Below, piece by piece: positions 4,629 to 63,065 of a DNA stretch of 64,000 nt. The notes under the pieces were generated by a model that saw only the letters and a list, made by a program, of their open reading frames with translations, made no database searches and had not been told where the DNA came from. The translations under genes and the position numbers were made by a program. This DNA is from Alphaproteobacteria bacterium (lineage in GTDB: Bacteria > Pseudomonadota > Alphaproteobacteria > Bin95). Within the stretch, counting starts at the first letter, position 1, and each line of letters begins with the position of its first letter. The stretch lies in assembly GCA_964291285.2 (NCBI GenBank), contig OZ219787.1, positions 544,001 to 608,000 of the forward strand, in the 5' to 3' direction.

Positions 4629-6118
4629 GGACGCGGCTCGCCGGACTGGCGGGCCGGAAACGGCAACTGGCCGCAGCGGCCGCAGGCATTGGCGCCACAT
4701 TCGCCATGCCGCCTCTTGGCGCAACGCCGGCCCTGGCCGCAGGCCTTGTAGCGCTTGCATGGCTGCTTGACGGGACGGCACGGTTCAGGGATGCCTTCCT
4801 GACAGCCTTTGCCTTTGCCTTCGGATTCTTCGCTGCCGGCCTCTACTGGGTGGCCGGTTCCTTTTTCGTCGTCGGCGGCGCAACGGCGGTCGGCGGGCCG
4901 GCAGCCGTTCTGGGTCTGGCGGCGCTGCTTGCCTTCTTTCCGGCTCTCCCCGCTGCGCTGGCGCATCGCCTGACGCGGCCAGGCATCGGGCGGGCGCTGG
5001 CGCTGGCGGCCGCGCTCGGCCTCGGCGACTGGCTGCGCGGCCATTTGCTGACCGGCTTTCCCTGGAACCTGTTCGGATATTCCTGGCTGCATGTTCCGGC
5101 GGTCGAGCAGGCGGCCGCGGTCGTCGGCATCTACGGAGTCGGGCTGGCGACGCTCGCCATCTGCCTTCTTCTGTCCGTCCCCGACCGGCGGGCATGGACC
5201 GCGGCCGCGCTCGCGGTCGCAGCGATGTTCGCTTACGGAGAGCTTCGTCTCGGCCGCGCTCCTCCTGCCGAGGCTGCAAGCGGTCCGCTTCTGCGCCTCG
5301 TTCAACCCAATATCCCGCAGTCCGACAAATGGCGCCGCGAGGACGCCGCCGCCCACCTGCGGCGCCTGGTGCGCCTCGGATCGGCAGGCCCCGAGCCGGA
5401 CGCCGTGATCTGGCCCGAAACGGCGGTCGCCCGGCTGCTGCATTCCGAGTCGCCGCTTGTCGAGGCGCTGGGCAAGACCGTGGAAAGTCGCCGGGGATTG
5501 ATTTCCGGCGCGCCCTGGCGGGAGGACGGACGCTACTACAACAGCATCCTCGCAATAGACCGCGAGGGCCGTCTGCAAGGGCGCCACGACAAGGCGCATC
5601 TCGTGCCCTTCGGCGAATATGTGCCGCTGCGCAGCCTGCTCGGCGCGGCGAAGCTCACGTTCGGGCGCAAGGACTTCGCCGCGGGGCCAGGGCCGTCGAC
5701 GCTCGCCCTGCCCGGCATTCCGCCGTTCGGCGCGCTGATCTGCTTCGAGGCGATCTTTCCGGGCGAGGCGGTAGCAGCCGATGCGCGCCCGGAATGGCTG
5801 CTGAACCTGACCAACGATGCGTGGTTCGGCGAGACCGCGGGGCCGCACCAGCATTTCGAGATCGCGCGCATGCGCGCGATCGAGACCGGCCTGCCGGTCC
5901 TGCGAGTCGCCAATACGGGCATTACCGGCGCGGTGGACGGCTACGGCCGGCGGCTCGGCAGGCTCGAACTCGGCAGGACCGGCAGCCTCGACATCCCCCT
6001 GCCTCCCCCGCTTGCGGAAACGACCTACGGCCGCCTGGGCGACCTGCCGTTCTTCGCGGGCGTCCTGCTGCTTGCCGCCCTCGCCGCCTGGCGGGGCCGG
6101 GCCGGCGGCAGCCGATAG
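4625..6118 (+). CDS. lnt: Apolipoprotein N-acyltransferase
   Basis: TGFPWN, VQPNIPQ, WPETA, KAHLVPFGEY, ICFEAIF, TNDAWFG motifs. Confidence 0.96.
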   Translation: MRTRLAGLAGRKRQLAAAAAGIGATFAMPPLGATPALAAGLVALAWLLDGTARFRDAFLTAFAFAFGFFAAGLYWVAGSFFVVGGATAVGGPAAVLGLAALLAFFPALPAALAHRLTRPGIGRALALAAALGLGDWLRGHLLTGFPWNLFGYSWLHVPAVEQAAAVVGIYGVGLATLAICLLLSVPDRRAWTAAALAVAAMFAYGELRLGRAPPAEAASGPLLRLVQPNIPQSDKWRREDAAAHLRRLVRLGSAGPEPDAVIWPETAVARLLHSESPLVEALGKTVESRRGLISGAPWREDGRYYNSILAIDREGRLQGRHDKAHLVPFGEYVPLRSLLGAAKLTFGRKDFAAGPGPSTLALPGIPPFGALICFEAIFPGEAVAADARPEWLLNLTNDAWFGETAGPHQHFEIARMRAIETGLPVLRVANTGITGAVDGYGRRLGRLELGRTGSLDIPLPPPLAETTYGRLGDLPFFAGVLLLAALAAWRGRAGGSR

Positions 6119-6330
6119 GAGCCGCTGCGCGCCACTCTGCGCCCCCTGCGTCCCTCATCCTGAGTAGTGCCGGCCTTCGCCCTGCGAAGGTCGGCGCGTA
6201 TCGAAGGATGGCTGCCAACGGTTCGGGACGGTCCTTCGATACGCGCCCGCTAACGCGGTCGCTACTCAGGATGAGGGAATATCGTCGCCCCGGCTCGGGG
6301 GCCGGGCCGGCGGCAGCCGATAGGAGCCGC
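6093..6330 (+). repeat. 33-bp perfect direct repeat (6093-6125 and 6298-6330) duplicating the lnt 3' end
   Basis: GGGGCCGGGCCGGCGGCAGCCGATAGGAGCCGC occurs twice and includes the lnt TAG stop. Confidence 0.9.
6151..6278. repeat. Palindromic REP/MITE-like element with 17-bp terminal inverted repeats
   Basis: TCCCTCATCCTGAGTAG (6151-6167) and CTACTCAGGATGAGGGA (6262-6278); internal IR GCGTATCGAAGGA/TCCTTCGATACGC; resembles alphaproteobacterial CTCATCCTGAG...CTCAGGATGAG intergenic repeats. Confidence 0.8.
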
Positions 6331-6341
6331 CGGCGCGGGCG

Positions 6342-6779
6342 CTATCGCTCGGTCCATCGCCGCTTGCGGCGGCGGCGGGCGAGGCGGCGGTCGCGCTCCA
6401 GGCCGTGGCGCTTCAGGAAGCGATGCACCGTGGACGAGCCGAACGACAGGCCCTCGGCGGCGAGCGCGTCGCACAGCCCCCGGATGGTAAGCCCCGGCCG
6501 CGCCTTCAGGATGCGGAAAATCCGCTCGCGCTCCGGCTCGATCCGGGAGACGTCGCCCCCCATCGGGTCGCGCCGCACATGGCCGCGCTCGCGAAACCGC
6601 CGGACCCAGTTGCGGACGGCGCTTTCGCTAACCCCGAAGCGCCGGGCCGCGGCGGCGGCGGCGACACCCTCCTCCAGCACCGCCGCGACCGCCCGGCCCC
6701 GCAGGTCCTCGCTGACCGGGCGGCCGCGCCGCTGCTTTCCCGAAACGCCCGCCCGACCGCTCGCCGCTTCCATCGTCAT
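6342..6779 (-). CDS. Stand-alone double-HTH protein homologous to the IS630 transposase N-terminal (ORF A) region, copy 1
   Basis: RPVSEDLRGRAVAAV..AARRFGVSESAVRNWVRRFRERG..MGG..LTIRGLCDALAAEG..STVHRFL matches the IS630 ORF-A pattern; GAGGAG RBS before ATG 6779; no DDE domain follows. Confidence 0.75.
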   Translation of the reverse strand: MTMEAASGRAGVSGKQRRGRPVSEDLRGRAVAAVLEEGVAAAAAARRFGVSESAVRNWVRRFRERGHVRRDPMGGDVSRIEPERERIFRILKARPGLTIRGLCDALAAEGLSFGSSTVHRFLKRHGLERDRRLARRRRKRRWTER

Positions 6780-7042
6780 CGCTCCTCCTCGCTCCGTCGG
6801 CGTTGCAACCTCGACACGACCCGCCCGCACGGAACGCCCGGCTCCTTCCGCCCGCTCCCCTACCCGACGGTCCGCCAGGCTGGATGGAACAATCCACCGC
6901 CGGCGCGCGCCTGCCGGCTGGCGGCACCCGGCAACGGATGCGCCTTTCCAGCTCCGGGTCGAATGCGGAAGCAGGGCGCCCGGATGGCGCCTCCGCCGGA
7001 CGGTCAGGTCATGGCCTCGTTCGGTCCCTCAAGGATTTGTTA

Positions 7043-7076
7043 GCACATATATAGAACATTGCGGGATATAGTCAAG
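7043..7076 (-). promoter_or_regulatory. Sigma70 promoter overlapped by a LexA-like box, upstream of HTH copy 1
   Basis: Minus strand CTTGAC-N16-CTATAT; GTTC-TATATAT-GTGC (7057-7043) is one mismatch from the alphaproteobacterial GTTC-N7-GTTC SOS box. Confidence 0.65.
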
Positions 7077-7227
7077 GATAAAATAGCGATGAGTCGCCGG
7101 TTGCATCCGCCCCGCCGATGCGGCGTCAACACACTTGACCCTCCCGGCCCCGGCTTGCGACAAGGGGCCATCGACCCGCATCGTCCGGCGGGCCTGTGCG
7201 ATGACTTAGTCAGGGAGCGTCCGCCGC

Positions 7228-8412
7228 GTGCTCGAAGGCAATTATCACTTCACCAGCGAGTCGGTGTCCGAAGGCCATCCGGACAAGATTTGCGACCGGA
7301 TTTCGGACTCGATCGTGGACGCCTTCATGGCCGAGGGCCAACCGGAGCTCAATCGCTGCGGCGTCGAAACGATGGTGACGACCAACCTGATCGTAATCGG
7401 CGGCGAAGTCCGGGGTCCTGCCGCCATCACCCGCGAACGGATGAGCGAGCTCGCGCGCCAGGCCGTGCGCGAGATCGGCTACGAACAGTACACCTTCCAC
7501 TGGCGCGACAGCACCGTGCTCTGCGTGGTCCACAAGCAGTCCGAAGACATTGCAATGGGCGTTGACGGCGCCGGCAACAAGGACGAGGGCGCGGGCGACC
7601 AGGGGCTGATGTTCGGCTACGCCTGCCGCGAGACTCCGGAACTGATGCCGGCTGCAATCCAGTACAGCCACCAGATACTGCACCGGCTCGCCGAGGCCCG
7701 ACGCCGCGGCGACCTGGGCGACGATCTGGGGCCGGACAACAAGAGCCAGGTCACCCTGCTGTACGAGGACGGCCACCCGGTGCGGGCGACCTCGGTCGTG
7801 GTCTCCACACAGCACCACGAGCGGTTCGGCGAGGACCAGGAGGCGGTCAAGCGTATCGTTCGCCCCTTCGTCGAGGACGTGCTGCCGAATGGCTGGATGT
7901 GCCCCGAGGACCGGTTCTTCGTGAATCCGACCGGCAAGTTCATCACCGGCGGGCCCGACGGCGACGCCGGCCTCACCGGACGCAAGATCATCGTCGATAC
8001 CTATGGCGGCGCAGCGCCCCACGGCGGCGGCGCCTTCTCCGGCAAGGACCCGAGCAAGGTGGACCGCTCCGCGGCCTATGCGGCCCGCTATGTCGCCAAG
8101 AACGTCGTCGCGGCGGGTCTCGCGGACAAATGCATCGTGCAGGTGGCCTACGCCATCGGCGTGGCGGACCCCGTTTCCGTGCTGCTCAACACGCAGGGCA
8201 CGGGCCGGGTTCCGGACGAGAAGCTTGCAGACGCCGTGCGGGAAGCCGTCGATCTCAGCCCGCGCGGCATCCGCACGCGCCTGATGCTCAACCGCCCGAT
8301 CTACAAGCGGACCAGTTCCTACGGCCATTTCGGCCGCGAGCCGGACGCAGACGGCGGCTTCTCCTGGGAACGCACCGACCTGGCGAAGGACCTGCAGGCC
8401 GCGCTTACTTGA
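7228..8412 (+). CDS. metK: S-adenosylmethionine synthetase
   Basis: [31 protein letters not shown] motifs. Confidence 0.98.
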
Positions 8413-42710: not shown

Positions 42711-42816
42711 GTCGGCCCCTCCCTACCGGCGCAAACGCAGGATAGGCAGTCCCGCCCCGCCTGCAAACCGGCGCGCAGGCCGCCGGTCCGGCTGCGCCGC
42801 GCCCTGCAACCGATTC

Positions 42817-42844
42817 GCCGCCCCGGACCGCAGTCCGGGGCGGC
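42817..42844. terminator. Perfect 12-bp stem-loop just downstream of HTH copy 2
   Basis: GCCGCCCCGGAC-CGCA-GTCCGGGGCGGC; no clear U-tract. Confidence 0.55.
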
Positions 42845-42866
42845 AAGGAGGTACGGAGCGGACCGG

Positions 42867-43310
42867 CTACCCGGAAGGAGGGAACACGGGGGCCTTCCAC
42901 CGCTTCCGCCTGCGGCGCACCGCGAGGCGGCGGCTGCGCTCCATGCGGTGGCGCCGGAGGAATCTGCACAAGGTCGGGCCGGAGAGCCGCACGCCCTCGG
43001 CGGCCAGCGCCTCGCTCAGCGCCCGGCTGGACAGTTCGGGCCGCGCCTCAAGGATACGGACGATCCGCTCGCGCTCCGCCTCCACCCGCGAGGGGCGCCC
43101 GCCGCGCGCGTCCTCCCGCACATGCCCGCGCTCGCGAAACCGTCTCACCCAGCGGCTGACGCTCGTGGCGGCCAGCCCGAACCGCGCCGCCGCCGCCTTG
43201 ACGCTCAGGCCCTCTTCCAGCACCGCCGCCACCGCCCGGCCCCGCAGTTGCGCGGCGACCGCCCGGCCCCGCCGGGACTCCGTCAGCGCACCTTCCGGTT
43301 CGTTCGCCAT
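42867..43310 (-). CDS. Stand-alone double-HTH protein homologous to the IS630 transposase N-terminal region, copy 2
   Basis: Aligns without gaps to the 6342-6779 protein (80/126 identical by hand count); purine-rich GAGGAG/GGAAGG RBS region; no DDE ORF. Confidence 0.75.
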   Translation of the reverse strand: MANEPEGALTESRRGRAVAAQLRGRAVAAVLEEGLSVKAAAARFGLAATSVSRWVRRFRERGHVREDARGGRPSRVEAERERIVRILEARPELSSRALSEALAAEGVRLSGPTLCRFLRRHRMERSRRLAVRRRRKRWKAPVFPPSG

Positions 43311-43525
43311 CCTTCCCGCTCCTCTCCGACTGCGCCCGCCATGGGCCAACTCCACCGACAGAACGGCGCCCCGCCGCCGTTTTTGCGCGCGCATCTCCCC
43401 CGTCTACCGCCCGGCCCCCGGCCGCCGGCAGTTTCTTTCCAAATTCGTGCCGGAAGGGACGCCGCCATGCGCCCGATCCGATAGCCCGTCAGGTCATCCC
43501 TCGCTCGACTTCCTGCTTTGCGATG

Positions 43526-43559
43526 GAACATATATAGAATATATGGGGATAAAGTCAAG
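43526..43559 (-). promoter_or_regulatory. Sigma70 promoter overlapped by a LexA-like box, upstream of HTH copy 2
   Basis: Minus strand CTTGAC-N16-CTATAT; plus strand GAAC-ATATATA-GAAT (43526-43540); same spacing as the 7043-7076 copy. Confidence 0.65.
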
Positions 43560-43573
43560 GCCGGAGACGCCGC

Positions 43574-43634
43574 CCCTTCGACAGGCTCAGGGCAGGCTCC
43601 TCCGCCATGCCCGGAACAAGGCCGGGCGTGGCGG
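43574..43634. repeat. REP-like palindromic repeat fragments
   Basis: CCCTTCGACAGGCTCAGGGC followed by hairpin CCGCCATGCCCGG-AACAAGG-CCGGGCGTGGCGG; both resemble widespread proteobacterial intergenic palindromic repeats. Confidence 0.55.
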
Positions 43635-43679
43635 GAAGAAGACAGGGGCCCGCATGGAGACCGCTGGCGCAAACACCCG

Positions 43680-44455
43680 CTACCCCTTGCGCCCCCGCAG
43701 GTCCGAAACGGCGACGGAACGCGCCCTCGCGCGGCATTCCCTGTATGCCGTCCTGCTTCCCTTACCGCCGCCAAAGCGCTCCCGGCAGTCCCTCTCCAGA
43801 CGCCTCTTTTCCATAATCAGCAGGTTGTTGTCTCCGAGCGAGCCGCAAACGCCGTCTCCGTTCCAGCCTTTGCCGCCCCCGGTTGCCGGATGCCCGATGC
43901 AACTCTCCTCAACCTGCTTGCCCGCTCGCCAGTTGCAGGTGACGCCCCTGCCGTTTTTCCACCCGTATGTGCCCCGGCCGTGGAAACGACTGTCCCTGAA
44001 CTGCCCGATATAGCGGGCGCCGTTCCCGCCGATATACACTCCACAACCCTGTATCCCGCGAGGACCGAAATCCCTGTCGCTGGCATAAATGTCGCCATTT
44101 GCCAGATACAGCCTTCCCTTTCCGCGAATTTCCCCATCGACGAACCAGCCTTCGTAGCGGTCGCCGGCAGCGGCCTTGCGCCGGGCTGCGCGCTGACCTT
44201 CGCCGGGTCGGACAGGACAGCGGCGAATGTCGAGGAGCCGCGCTCGTAGTCCCGCTGCCTCGTATCGAGATTGAGGGAACGCCTGCCGGTGACATCGTCC
44301 ACCTTCGTCAAGGCGCCGGCCGTCTCGTGAAGAAGCGTGTCGGTCGCCTTGGCGGCTTCCCCGACCGTCGAGGCAAATTCCCCAATGCCTTCGCAGGCGG
44401 AAAGCGCAAGAACGGCAAGCCCGGCAAGCATCGCCCGGGATATCCGGCAAACCAT
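43680..44455 (-). pseudogene. Frameshifted MORN-repeat lipoprotein
   Basis: Signal/lipobox LALSAC in the frame starting at ATG 44455; MORN repeats (GDRYEGWFVDG, GARYIGQFRDSRFHGRG) in a different frame ending at 43680; frame switch near 44160-44230. Confidence 0.65.
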
Positions 44456-44483
44456 GGAATCCCCCTCCAGAAAGCCCCTCGGC

Positions 44484-45980
44484 CTAGCGCCCCCACCTCT
44501 TGCGCTGCTTCACGTTCCTGTCCGTGAGGGTGCCGCAGACGCCTTCGCCCCGGTAGCGCGCGCCGATGCCCGTCACCCGGTGGGCCTTGCAGCTTTCCAC
44601 GACCCGCTGGCCGTCCCGCCAGTCGCAGGTGGCCGCCACGCCCTCGGCCCACTCATAGGTGCCCCGGCCATGGAAGCGGCCGTCGCGGAACTGCCCCAGA
44701 TAGCGGTCTCCGTTCGCGCGGACATAGAGGCCGCAGCCCTGGAAGCCCCGGCTGTCGAACTCGCCGTCGCCGCCATAGACGTCGCCATTGGCGAGATACA
44801 TCGTGCCGCGCCCGCGAATCCCGCCGTCGGCGAACTCGCCCACATAGCGGTCCCCGTTGGCGAAGGTGAGGACGCCCCGTCCGTGCGGCCTGCCATCCAT
44901 GTGCTGGCCTTCATATTTCGCCTCTTCGCGGTCCGCCCCCTCCGGAGCCGCCGCTGCTGCCTTCTGTCCTTCCCCGCGCCCCGCCGCGCCGGCCGGAACC
45001 GGCAGGGCGCCGCGCCAGGACGCCGTGCGGAAACAGACGGCCGCGGCCCGGCCGGGAAACGTTCCGTCCGCCGGATGCTCGACACAGCTTCCCTCGACCT
45101 CCGCATCGCCCCGCCATTCACAGGTCTTCATGAGCCCGTCCGGCCAGGCGTAGCTGCCGAGGCCGTGAAATCTGTCGCGCCGGAACTCTCCGGCGTAATA
45201 CTCCCCATTGGCCCAGATATAGGCTCCGCATCCGTGGAATTGGTCATCGCGGACGTCGCCGACATAGCGGTTTCCGTCCGCCATCGTCCAGTCGCCGAAT
45301 CCGTAAAATCTCCCGTCCCTGAAATCCCCCTCGTAACGTTCGCCCCCGGGGCTGTCGTAGATGCCTTTTCCGTGCATCTTCCCGTCGCGCACTTCCCCGA
45401 TATAGCGGTCCCCGTTCGCCATGGACGAGACGGCGTTGCCCTGGAATTTTCCATCCAGGAAATCGCCGTCATAACGCTCGCCGTCAGGCCAGAAATATAC
45501 GCCCCGTCCATGGAACTTCCCGTTCCGGAACGCGCCGACATAGCGGTGGCCGTCGGGCGAATGCCACTCGCCCTGTCCGTCGGCGACGCCTTTTCGCCTC
45601 TGGCCCCGGAATTCCGGCGCCGCTTCGCCTCCCCCCGCCGTTCGCGGCGCCGGACGCGGCAGCGGGACGCCCAGCGCCGTCCGCCGCGGCAGGTCGGGCT
45701 TCGCTTCCACGACCGGCTCGATCTTTTCGGGATCTACGGGAGCCGTGGTCAAAATCCGGGCCTGCCGGTCGCGCTCGACCTGTTTGGTCCTGTGATGGAC
45801 GGCGTGTTTCCGGGCGGCCTTTCCCGCCTTCGCCACCGGCGCCTTTTTCTCCTGGAACTGGGCGCGCAGACCAGACCCGAATTTGTCGAAATCAGACCCG
45901 ATTTTCCGGGCCGCCTCGCAGGAAGAAAGCACGAAAACCACGAGGCAAGCAGCGAGGACCCTGACTGCGAGGTTTTTCAT
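44484..45980 (-). CDS. MORN-repeat lipoprotein with two Cys-capped MORN arrays
   Basis: Lipobox VLSSC; many G-x-x-Y-x-G-x-F-x-x-G-x-F-x-G-x-G repeats. Confidence 0.85.
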   Translation of the reverse strand: MKNLAVRVLAACLVVFVLSSCEAARKIGSDFDKFGSGLRAQFQEKKAPVAKAGKAARKHAVHHRTKQVERDRQARILTTAPVDPEKIEPVVEAKPDLPRRTALGVPLPRPAPRTAGGGEAAPEFRGQRRKGVADGQGEWHSPDGHRYVGAFRNGKFHGRGVYFWPDGERYDGDFLDGKFQGNAVSSMANGDRYIGEVRDGKMHGKGIYDSPGGERYEGDFRDGRFYGFGDWTMADGNRYVGDVRDDQFHGCGAYIWANGEYYAGEFRRDRFHGLGSYAWPDGLMKTCEWRGDAEVEGSCVEHPADGTFPGRAAAVCFRTASWRGALPVPAGAAGRGEGQKAAAAAPEGADREEAKYEGQHMDGRPHGRGVLTFANGDRYVGEFADGGIRGRGTMYLANGDVYGGDGEFDSRGFQGCGLYVRANGDRYLGQFRDGRFHGRGTYEWAEGVAATCDWRDGQRVVESCKAHRVTGIGARYRGEGVCGTLTDRNVKQRKRWGR

Positions 45981-62728: not shown

Positions 62729-63057
62729 TGTCCCGTTGCCTCCTTCTTGATCGCGGCGACCAGGCGCGACAACGCTCTCGTGTCCGCCGGCGTGAGGTCT
62801 TCGCGATCCGCCTTCGCGTAGGCCGTCAGCAGGTAGATGGCGCCGGGGCTGGCATGGTAGAAATAGACGGTGCGGATGCCGCCCCGCTTTCCGCGTCCCG
62901 AGCCGGCCCATCGCAGCTTGCGGATACCGCCGGTGCCCCGAATGACGGGCGCCGCATCGGGGGCGGCGACGATACTCTCCTCCATCTCCTTGCGGGCCTC
63001 TTCCCCAAGCAGCTTGCGAATCGCCCGTTCGTAAGTGCGGGTGGAGAAGACCTGCAT
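62725..63057 (-). CDS. RelE/HigB-family toxin
   Basis: IRGTGGIRKLRW..GRGKRGGIRTVY..YLLTAYAK motif; toxin-first gene order. Confidence 0.9.
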   Translation of the reverse strand: MQVFSTRTYERAIRKLLGEEARKEMEESIVAAPDAAPVIRGTGGIRKLRWAGSGRGKRGGIRTVYFYHASPGAIYLLTAYAKADREDLTPADTRALSRLVAAIKKEATGQ

Positions 63058-63065
63058 CGTGCCTC

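Follow-up and report, generated by a model that had tools for sequence, protein, structure and literature searches.

A genus-restricted family of stand-alone, predicted paired-type DNA-binding proteins descended from an IS630 transposase fragment

Two related genes lie 36 kb apart on the minus strand of the 64,000-nucleotide stretch of alphaproteobacterial DNA analysed here (the window; contig OZ219787.1, positions 544,001 to 608,000). Each encodes a protein of about 145 residues with two helix-turn-helix (HTH) motifs and an Arg-rich tail. The genome (G000) comprises 6.13 Mb in 5 contigs and has a G+C content of 68%. A preliminary description of this DNA had presented the pair as a two-copy system of domesticated proteins, derived from the first open reading frame (ORF A) of an IS630 insertion sequence (IS) and carried in a repeated expression cassette. 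We find instead that the two genes belong to a family of about 40 copies that is restricted to one genus. The features of the two units, hereafter copy 1 and copy 2, are as follows.

6342–6779, minus strand: coding sequence (CDS) of copy 1, start ATG at 6779, 145 residues plus stop; predicted paired-type double HTH (PAI, RED) and basic C-terminal helix ending ERDRRLARRRRKRRWTER
6782–6790, minus strand: ribosome-binding site of the copy 1 main ORF, GAGGAGGAG, from sequence reading
6901–6912, minus strand: leader motif of copy 1, AGGCGCGCGCCG (family motif AGGTGCGCGCGC), about 129 nt past the predicted transcription start
7004–7018, minus strand: GAGG ribosome-binding site (7018–7015) and mini-ORF ATG-ACC-TGA (7012–7004) of copy 1
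7049–7076, minus strand: promoter-like box CTTGAC-N16-CTATAT of copy 1 (CTTGAC 7076–7071, CTATAT 7054–7049)
7077–7098, minus strand: small, terminator-like hairpin and T-run abutting the −35 box of copy 1; a T-run at this place is common across the family
42867–43310, minus strand: CDS of copy 2, start ATG at 43310, 147 residues plus stop; architecture as in copy 1, tail ERSRRLAVRRRRKRWKAPVFPPSG
43385–43396, minus strand: leader motif of copy 2, AGATGCGCGCGC
43489–43497, minus strand: mini-ORF ATG-ACC-TGA of copy 2
43532–43559, minus strand: promoter-like box CTTGAC-N16-CTATAT of copy 2 (CTTGAC 43559–43554, CTATAT 43537–43532)
Own-promoter sequence of the unit: GTTCTATATAAGTTC

The intervals originally delimited for the two copies have the stop codon at one end and the −35 box at the other, and so capture the unit well. 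The longest open frames extend over 6342–6830 in copy 1 and 42867–43394 in copy 2. The ATG codons at 6779 and 43310 are the likely starts, and each is preceded by a GGAGG-type ribosome-binding site, in keeping with the good sites noted earlier. The proteins are paralogues with 68 of 112 residues identical and no gaps (BLASTP, E 7e-36). The alignment ends at the residues RFL, while the Arg-rich tails beyond it align by eye; with the tails aligned in this way, the earlier count of about 80 identities in 126 gap-free positions fits. A GAGG element followed by ATGACCTGAC lies about 45 nt past the promoter-like box in both copies. This 10-mer occurs exactly twice in the window, once 5' of each ORF, against an expectation of 0.04, and two occurrences were found in none of 100 shuffles.

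The leader of copy 1 varies among close relatives just 5' of the main start. In metagenome contigs that carry the copy 1 locus (runs X4 and X7), 106 nt of the leader (6791–6896) are swapped for 52 other letters.

The search for further copies that the preliminary description had proposed reveals a large family. A six-frame search of the same genome yields 57 matches at E≤1e-3, the weakest of which are the N-termini of genuine IS630 copies, and tblastn finds 44 loci at E≤1e-5. These divide into group A, with 37 loci at 52–82% amino-acid identity, and group B, with 7 loci at 39–45% identity and the N-terminus MPKAFS... The core of group A, from RGR to FLKRHG, is a single open frame in 36 of 37 copies; the group A copy at C4:61293 misses its last third. 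Within the genus, 14 of 16 other genomes contain matches (E≤1e-10; 2–41 each), and two complete genomes have none. Outside the genus, matches occur in 3 of 24 genomes, with 1–3 in each.

A collection of 5.8 billion proteins contains 359 relatives of similar length. Among the best 120 of these, lengths are 112–181 residues, and the few that bear names are called "helix-turn-helix domain-containing protein" or "transposase" and come from uncultured Alphaproteobacteria. An exhaustive HMMER search of 1.84 billion representatives returns 3 sequences at E≤1e-30 and 199 at E≤1e-10. Sequences closely related to the locus are present in sequencing runs labelled as sponge and coral metagenomes. The PADLOC defence-system models give only weak, HTH-level matches to Csa3 and mad1.

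Two peculiar pairs were observed among the copies. The units at C2:1421848 and C3:2197732 are on different contigs and form part of a segmental duplication (more than 3 kb, 99.9% identity). In a related genome, loci L067 and L079 (G011:C1:1312557-1316021) are 3 kb apart and share 363 nt at 98% identity, while the remainder differs; this pattern may reflect gene conversion or a partial local duplication.

Throughout the family the unit measures about 0.7–0.9 kb and keeps the same order. A T-run is followed by the promoter-like box and by a leader that contains a ribosome-binding site with a 2-codon mini-ORF and then AGGTGCGCGCGC; a second ribosome-binding site and ATG open the ORF of about 145 residues with its basic helix. 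Between the closest paralogues, homology starts 10–50 nt 5' of the −35 box, usually at the T-run, and stops at the stop codon or a few codons earlier. Where it ends before the stop codon, the last residues are therefore read from flanking DNA. A pattern search finds the box at 28 of the 44 loci, typically as cTTGACa, 16–17 nt ending in TGTT, CTATAT and a/t-GTTCC. The sigma-70 consensus of Sinorhizobium meliloti, as stated in an excerpt of PMC2873474, is CTTGAC-N17-CTATAT. We regard the promoter-like box as a probable alphaproteobacterial housekeeping-type promoter, on the grounds of its conservation and of this rhizobial consensus and not of a sigma-70 scan.

The mini-ORF ATG-ACC-TGA, with its ribosome-binding site, is located about 28 nt past the predicted start and is present in 26 of the 28 promoter-bearing copies. 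It was seen by eye in 5 further copies with a variant promoter. The variants ATG-ACC-TGG-AGC-TGA, ATG-ATC-TGG-ACC-TGA and ATG-ACC-TGG-TGA preserve a short ORF. The mini-ORF is offset from the main ORF by 0, 1 or 2 depending on the copy, which rules out a frameshift fusion of the two. In 17 of the 28 leaders, AGGTGCGCGCGC or a near variant is found 113–150 nt from the predicted start. The leaders range from 129 to 362 nt, and outside the motifs both their length and their sequence vary. In other genomes, the box and the mini-ORF occur together at 32 of 41 loci and the mini-ORF motif at 39 of 41. The repeated expression cassette of the preliminary description is thus borne out on a larger scale. 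Five copies of group B that were read have the same promoter type, a leader of about 35 nt and no mini-ORF, and the long leader would therefore be a later addition.

No conserved RNA structure emerged from the leaders. Rfam gave no meaningful match for copy 1 and 19 further loci, RNAalifold predicted 0 pairs for 25 leaders, and the 45 nt 5' of AGGTGCGCGCGC show no better folding than their shuffled counterparts (mean z −0.38, n=43). Neighbouring genes are found in all orientations, and a rough, unannotated gene call revealed no recurrent neighbour or operon partner.

Copies 1 and 2 match the Pfam profiles HTH_23, HTH_28, HTH_32 and HTH_Tnp_1. The NCBIfam model transpos_IS630 is covered at profile positions 4–120 of 299 only (57 bits versus a cut-off of 100, E 1.5e-15). 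The Pfam PAX profile (PF00292) is matched by copy 1 with 23.2 bits versus a cut-off of 22, and is not matched by copy 2. When 68 family sequences were combined into a profile, it matched Prd (E 1.4e-5), Pax-8, Pax5 and Pax6 in their paired domains and Sleeping Beauty in its PAI and RED subdomains, and the N-terminal RGRP of the family aligns with the NGRPLP of the paired domain. In the AlphaFold2 model (mean pLDDT 72.9), residues 1–20 and 72–76 are predicted to be disordered; the remainder forms two three-helix bundles and a C-terminal helix (residues 129–144) that bears the basic tail. The comparison with IS630/Tc1 paired-like domains suggested in the preliminary description was carried out with Foldseek. 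The nearest structures to the model are those of Pax5, Prd and Pax6 (probability 1.00, TM 0.39–0.57; Pax5 TM 0.50/0.57), followed by the DNA-binding domains of SETMAR, Mos1 and Tc3. The predicted paired-type fold marks kinship with the transposase superfamily and not membership of animal Pax. The 68 sequences show little or no variation in the basic tail and at the scaffold positions of the two HTH motifs; the variable positions of the family alignment lie just before and inside the two recognition helices.

Sequence comparison traces the family to ORF A of an IS630-type insertion sequence, because the profiles match the N-terminal part of IS630 only and because the relatives at 37–45% identity are classical two-ORF IS630 elements. 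These relatives, from Bradyrhizobium and uncultured Alphaproteobacteria (loci L043, L046 and L047), have an ORF A with the C-terminus ...SFKKK or ...SYKKR; it overlaps a second ORF, which encodes a DDE_3 domain (E ~1e-34). The family proteins share with this ORF A the bipartite HTH, a similar length and an end at the equivalent of the frameshift region, but close with ...FLKRHGLERxRRLAxRRRKRW and a stop. An Acidocella relative at 43% identity has a DDE-like frame, to which Pfam was not applied. The origin proposed in the preliminary description is thereby supported.

The remaining parts of a transposon are missing from the units. The genome has 32 DDE_3 matches, and not one of them is inside or directly after a unit; the nearest belongs to a complete, separate IS630 about 0.3 kb past one unit. 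Among longer proteins, a search turned up three with multiple HTH domains and none fused to a DDE domain, which is weak evidence. The units contain no A-run slippery site, and their tails are Arg-rich and run into the stop. Terminal inverted ends were seen neither at the homology limits of the closest paralogues nor at the occupied/empty junctions compared, and no TA or other target duplication was seen at the copy 1 junction and 5 further junctions. Several occupied/empty junctions are blurred by other small repeats, and several inserts include such repeats. For the classical IS630 relatives, whose inverted ends would have served for comparison with the 5' end of the unit, no such ends were recovered at the settings used. 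As to membership of the IS630 family, the units thus have the bipartite HTH and lack the DDE(D) catalytic domain, inverted repeats and TA duplication. As to miniature inverted-repeat transposable elements (MITEs), they have no inverted ends or target duplication matching an autonomous partner. That DDE ORF, slippery site and inverted ends are all missing, as noted earlier for two copies, is borne out.

The genome also contains resident IS630 elements of two types, with lengths of 1,169 bp (about 15 copies) and 1,243 bp (about 8 copies) and an identity of 98–99.9% (for example C3:199529-200697 and C4:419316-420558). Their ends, ...CCAGCGG... flanked by TA, are shared by none of the HTH units, and a search of 44 unit regions for these ends gave 1 match at ≤4 mismatches. 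While the active IS630 copies are 98.8–99.9% identical to one another, even the closest HTH paralogues outside the duplication reach no more than about 88%. The 3' limit shared by all copies fits one truncated founder that then multiplied, and not many independent decays. The genome is very IS-rich; a further repeat of about 0.8 kb is present in more than 50 copies at 99.6–100% identity.

The family diversified before the species split and has been inherited mostly vertically, because the nearest relatives of its members are in other genomes and because many loci are syntenic. In a tree of 104 sequences, which took in 13–17 loci per relative, 30 of the 37 group A copies are nearest to a copy in another genome. 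Synteny with a copy in G000 was found for 21 of 30 loci from G002 and G006 and for 7 of 30 from G011 and G012. Measured as a domesticated gene, the family has lost the hallmarks of mobility and has orthologues at syntenic sites in several species.

The coding sequences appear to retain a trace of constraint. The ratio of nonsynonymous to synonymous substitution rates (dN/dS, Nei-Gojobori) has a median of 0.68 and a range of 0.37–1.52 over 666 pairs of paralogues. The pN/pS ratio is lowest in the annotated frame (0.74, versus 0.84–1.28 in the other five). The G+C content of third codon positions is 0.92, which compresses synonymous change. Across 20 orthologue alignments, the CDS (92.0% identity) and the flanks (91–93%) are more alike than the leader (87.7%) and the promoter block (86.0%). 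There are 35 insertion or deletion (indel) events in 7,719 nt of CDS and 117 in 3,568 nt of leader, and they are thus about 7-fold rarer in the CDS. When 5 of the 20 orthologue pairs were re-examined, three had no CDS indel, one had a +1/−1 pair 7 nt apart together with tail events, and the fifth involved the truncated copy.

Comparison with relatives indicates that units were once acquired at their present sites. Two segments of the window and one linked repeat bear on this point.

6104–7116: unit of copy 1 and MITE-like repeat, about 1.0 kb; present here, whereas 4 of 5 relatives compared have no such segment between lnt and the promoter region of metK
6153–6276: palindromic MITE-like repeat with the ends CCTCATCCTGAGTAG and CTACTCAGGATGAGG; flanked by a 33-bp direct repeat (6093–6125 and 6298–6330)
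42786–44482: 1.7-kb segment with copy 2 and a 212-residue ORF; missing at the syntenic site of G012 and G008

At the empty lnt-metK site of the 4 relatives, the two flanks are at most 10 nt apart. The inserted segment provides the last codons and the stop of lnt (6083–6118); in the relatives with the empty site, lnt reads ...VRRQYT and stops inside the −35-like TTGACC of the metK upstream region. A full orthologue of copy 1 is present in G002. The orthologue in G006 has lost its first 9 codons together with leader and promoter, through a deletion between short repeats, and the MITE-like repeat is absent there too. In the opposite direction, five copies found in relatives (L058, L069, L080, L082 and L101) face empty sites in G000. 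The sites that are empty in relatives show that units were inserted at an earlier time, and the presence or absence of units between species indicates that they once spread like mobile DNA. In three further cases (L094, L089 and L071, compared with G000 C3:1094532-1095761), the HTH unit of the relative adjoins a flank that has no unit here, while the other flank maps to a different contig; units may therefore lie at rearrangement breakpoints.

Two other regions of the window were noted in these comparisons. The 212-residue ORF beside copy 2 (43817–44455, minus strand) has no Pfam match and is situated between the copy 2 unit and the gene for a 498-residue MORN-repeat protein (44484–45980, minus strand; Pfam E 2e-45). 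A RelE-family toxin ORF of 97 residues is located at 62769–63060 on the minus strand (Pfam E 1e-8); in the region syntenic to it, G012 has an HTH unit in a 1.7-kb stretch that corresponds to about 370 bp in G000.

The MITE-like repeat found at copy 1 is associated with the family more widely. Its end motif has 63 matches in the genome, 25 of them within 600 bp of a unit, either 20–419 nt past its stop or 75–368 nt 5' of its promoter. The repeat is found beside 13 of 44 units (30%), compared with 1.3% of random windows. In 17 genomes of the genus, the number of motif matches follows the number of HTH genes (Spearman 0.79), although the genomes are related and not independent, and both numbers may follow the repeat load. 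The motif is lacking from three of these genomes, which have 0, 0 and 2 HTH matches. In G002, a comparison of coordinates places many of the listed motif matches next to HTH genes. The repeat at copy 1 is recent; it is absent from G006 and is flanked by the 33-bp direct repeat. Such a flanking repeat is not general and was found for 1 of 24 candidates.

Taken as a transposase-derived, genus-restricted family of about 40 stand-alone, paired-type (PAI, RED) proteins, these genes may encode specific DNA binders, most likely repressors; we put the chance that this reading is right at about even. The proteins would bind specific DNA as their transposase ancestors bound transposon ends, and would repress their own promoter or leader, transposon-type repeats, or both. 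Candidate targets are IS630 ends or the palindromic MITE-like repeat, and candidate operators are the partly palindromic leader motif GGTGCGCGCGCC and a GTTC-N7-GTTC arrangement around the −10 box. The helix of the basic tail would add unspecific nucleic-acid affinity, and the mini-ORF could tune expression of the long leader. As to their history, units were inserted into intergenic sites, and most now pass vertically as orthologues under what appears to be weak purifying selection.

A number of observations weigh against this reading. The shared promoter of the preliminary description holds in that both copies have the same CTTGAC-N16-CTATAT, but a sigma-70 scan of the window in the E. coli style calls neither, because the second hexamer does not have the required final T. 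One metatranscriptome run contained a small share of the stretch, with a single contig that covers 7201–7370 (metK) and does not reach the HTH gene. In the dN/dS comparison proposed in the preliminary description, syntenic orthologues have values of 0.34–0.98 (7 pairs), against 0.11–0.18 for metK and 0.13–0.19 for lnt in the same genomes, and purifying selection on the proteins appears weak. The promoter and leader of orthologues are conserved no better than the flanks, and 23 of the 35 CDS indel events are not multiples of three. A set of about 40 copies, present or absent by species, is also unlike the classical domesticated single-copy gene.

The units could instead be a non-autonomous selfish element that is still mobile and is moved by an enzyme encoded elsewhere, be it a resident transposase or host recombination, with the HTH protein aiding its own spread, for example by marking the unit ends. 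The empty sites would suit such an element (that of copy 1 in 4 of 5 relatives, that of copy 2 in 2, and those in G000 opposite 5 copies of relatives), as would a copy number that ranges from 2 to 43 across the genus, the sharp start and stop of homology at the unit between closest paralogues, and a genome rich in active IS630 and other repeats. We nevertheless consider continued mobility unlikely, given that inverted ends or a target duplication appear at none of the junctions compared, that IS630 ends are all but absent from the unit regions (the 1 match at ≤4 mismatches), that the only near-identical pair belongs to the segmental duplication of more than 3 kb, and that most copies are old orthologues. 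A quite improbable alternative is that the genes are functionless relics of ancient IS630 insertions that lost ORF B, in which open frames survive because stops are rare at 68% G+C. Long open frames do occur in all six frames of the window DNA, one copy is truncated and another lacks its promoter and leader, many CDS indel events have lengths not divisible by three, and dN/dS reaches 0.98 in one orthologue pair and has its median at 0.68 in paralogues. Against mere relics, the box, mini-ORF and ribosome-binding sites remain recognisable across genomes and among copies that share 52–60% of their residues, pN/pS is lower in the annotated frame than in any of the other five, the leader has about 7 times as many indels per nucleotide as the CDS, the HTH scaffold and basic tail are nearly invariant in 68 sequences, and the common 3' limit fits a single truncated founder. 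The argument of the preliminary description that the copies reflect more than random decay is upheld by the pN/pS and indel results, together with the core that is open in 36 of 37 copies and the syntenic orthologues.

We attach a similarly low probability to a broader scheme. Here the HTH genes and the MITE-like repeat with the CCTCATCCTGAGTAG ends would form a two-part system that radiated in a sponge-associated genus, the proteins binding the repeat ends and perhaps silencing or tethering the repeats or steering them to sites beside their own genes; or the unit would be a new kind of mobile cassette that does without inverted ends and target duplication. It seems extremely improbable that the proteins are delivered to the host sponge, where the basic tail would serve for nuclear localisation. 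The nuclear-localisation idea of the preliminary description gained nothing beyond the conserved Arg/Lys-rich tail itself and the close relatives of the locus in sponge and coral metagenome runs, while no signal peptide or link to a secretion system was seen, and the rough gene call gave no recurrent partner. A basic tail after the DNA-binding domain is ordinary in the IS630/Tc1 transposase superfamily.

Returning to a family of DNA binders of transposase origin, several known systems invite comparison. Against complete IS630 elements, the family stands apart in having no DDE ORF, inverted ends or TA duplication, in the divergence of its copies and in its long leader with a mini-ORF. Profile and model assign the same fold to Pax, to the Tc1-mariner transposases (Sleeping Beauty, Tc3, Mos1) and to SETMAR, but the family differs from Pax in being bacterial, stand-alone and present in about 40 copies per genome, and its identity to Pax is 21–25%. 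InsA of IS1 and OrfA of IS3/IS911 correspond to the DNA-binding portion of a transposase and are produced with no catalytic portion; they bind the ends of the element and repress it. The family resembles IS1 InsA and IS911 OrfA in this separation, but these are encoded in an intact element beside the catalytic frame, whereas the family genes have no surrounding element. In the RAYT/REPIN system, a domesticated transposase is tied to palindromic repeats, and RAYTs are catalytic HUH enzymes present in one or few copies per genome. A transposase-derived gene, vertical inheritance and a physical association with a palindromic repeat family are common to both, while the protein described here has no catalytic domain and is itself multi-copy. 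Host capture of the DNA-binding domain of Tc1/mariner/IS630 elements is well known in eukaryotes, as in Pax, CENP-B and SETMAR. The same domain was captured there, and the family differs in its roughly 40 copies. A literature search of limited depth found no bacterial precedent on such a scale.

The public names "transposase" and "helix-turn-helix domain-containing protein" inflate the mobile-element counts of these genomes, because they are given to proteins of the family. What is seen here is a bacterial genus that keeps about 40 diverged, stand-alone copies with a conserved box and mini-ORF leader, many of them orthologous between species. If the copies are functional, they would constitute a test case of a transposase fragment that multiplies without its enzyme, and a natural series of paired-domain proteins with varied recognition helices. 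They might then also provide a layer of control over the heavy load of IS and MITEs in symbiont genomes.

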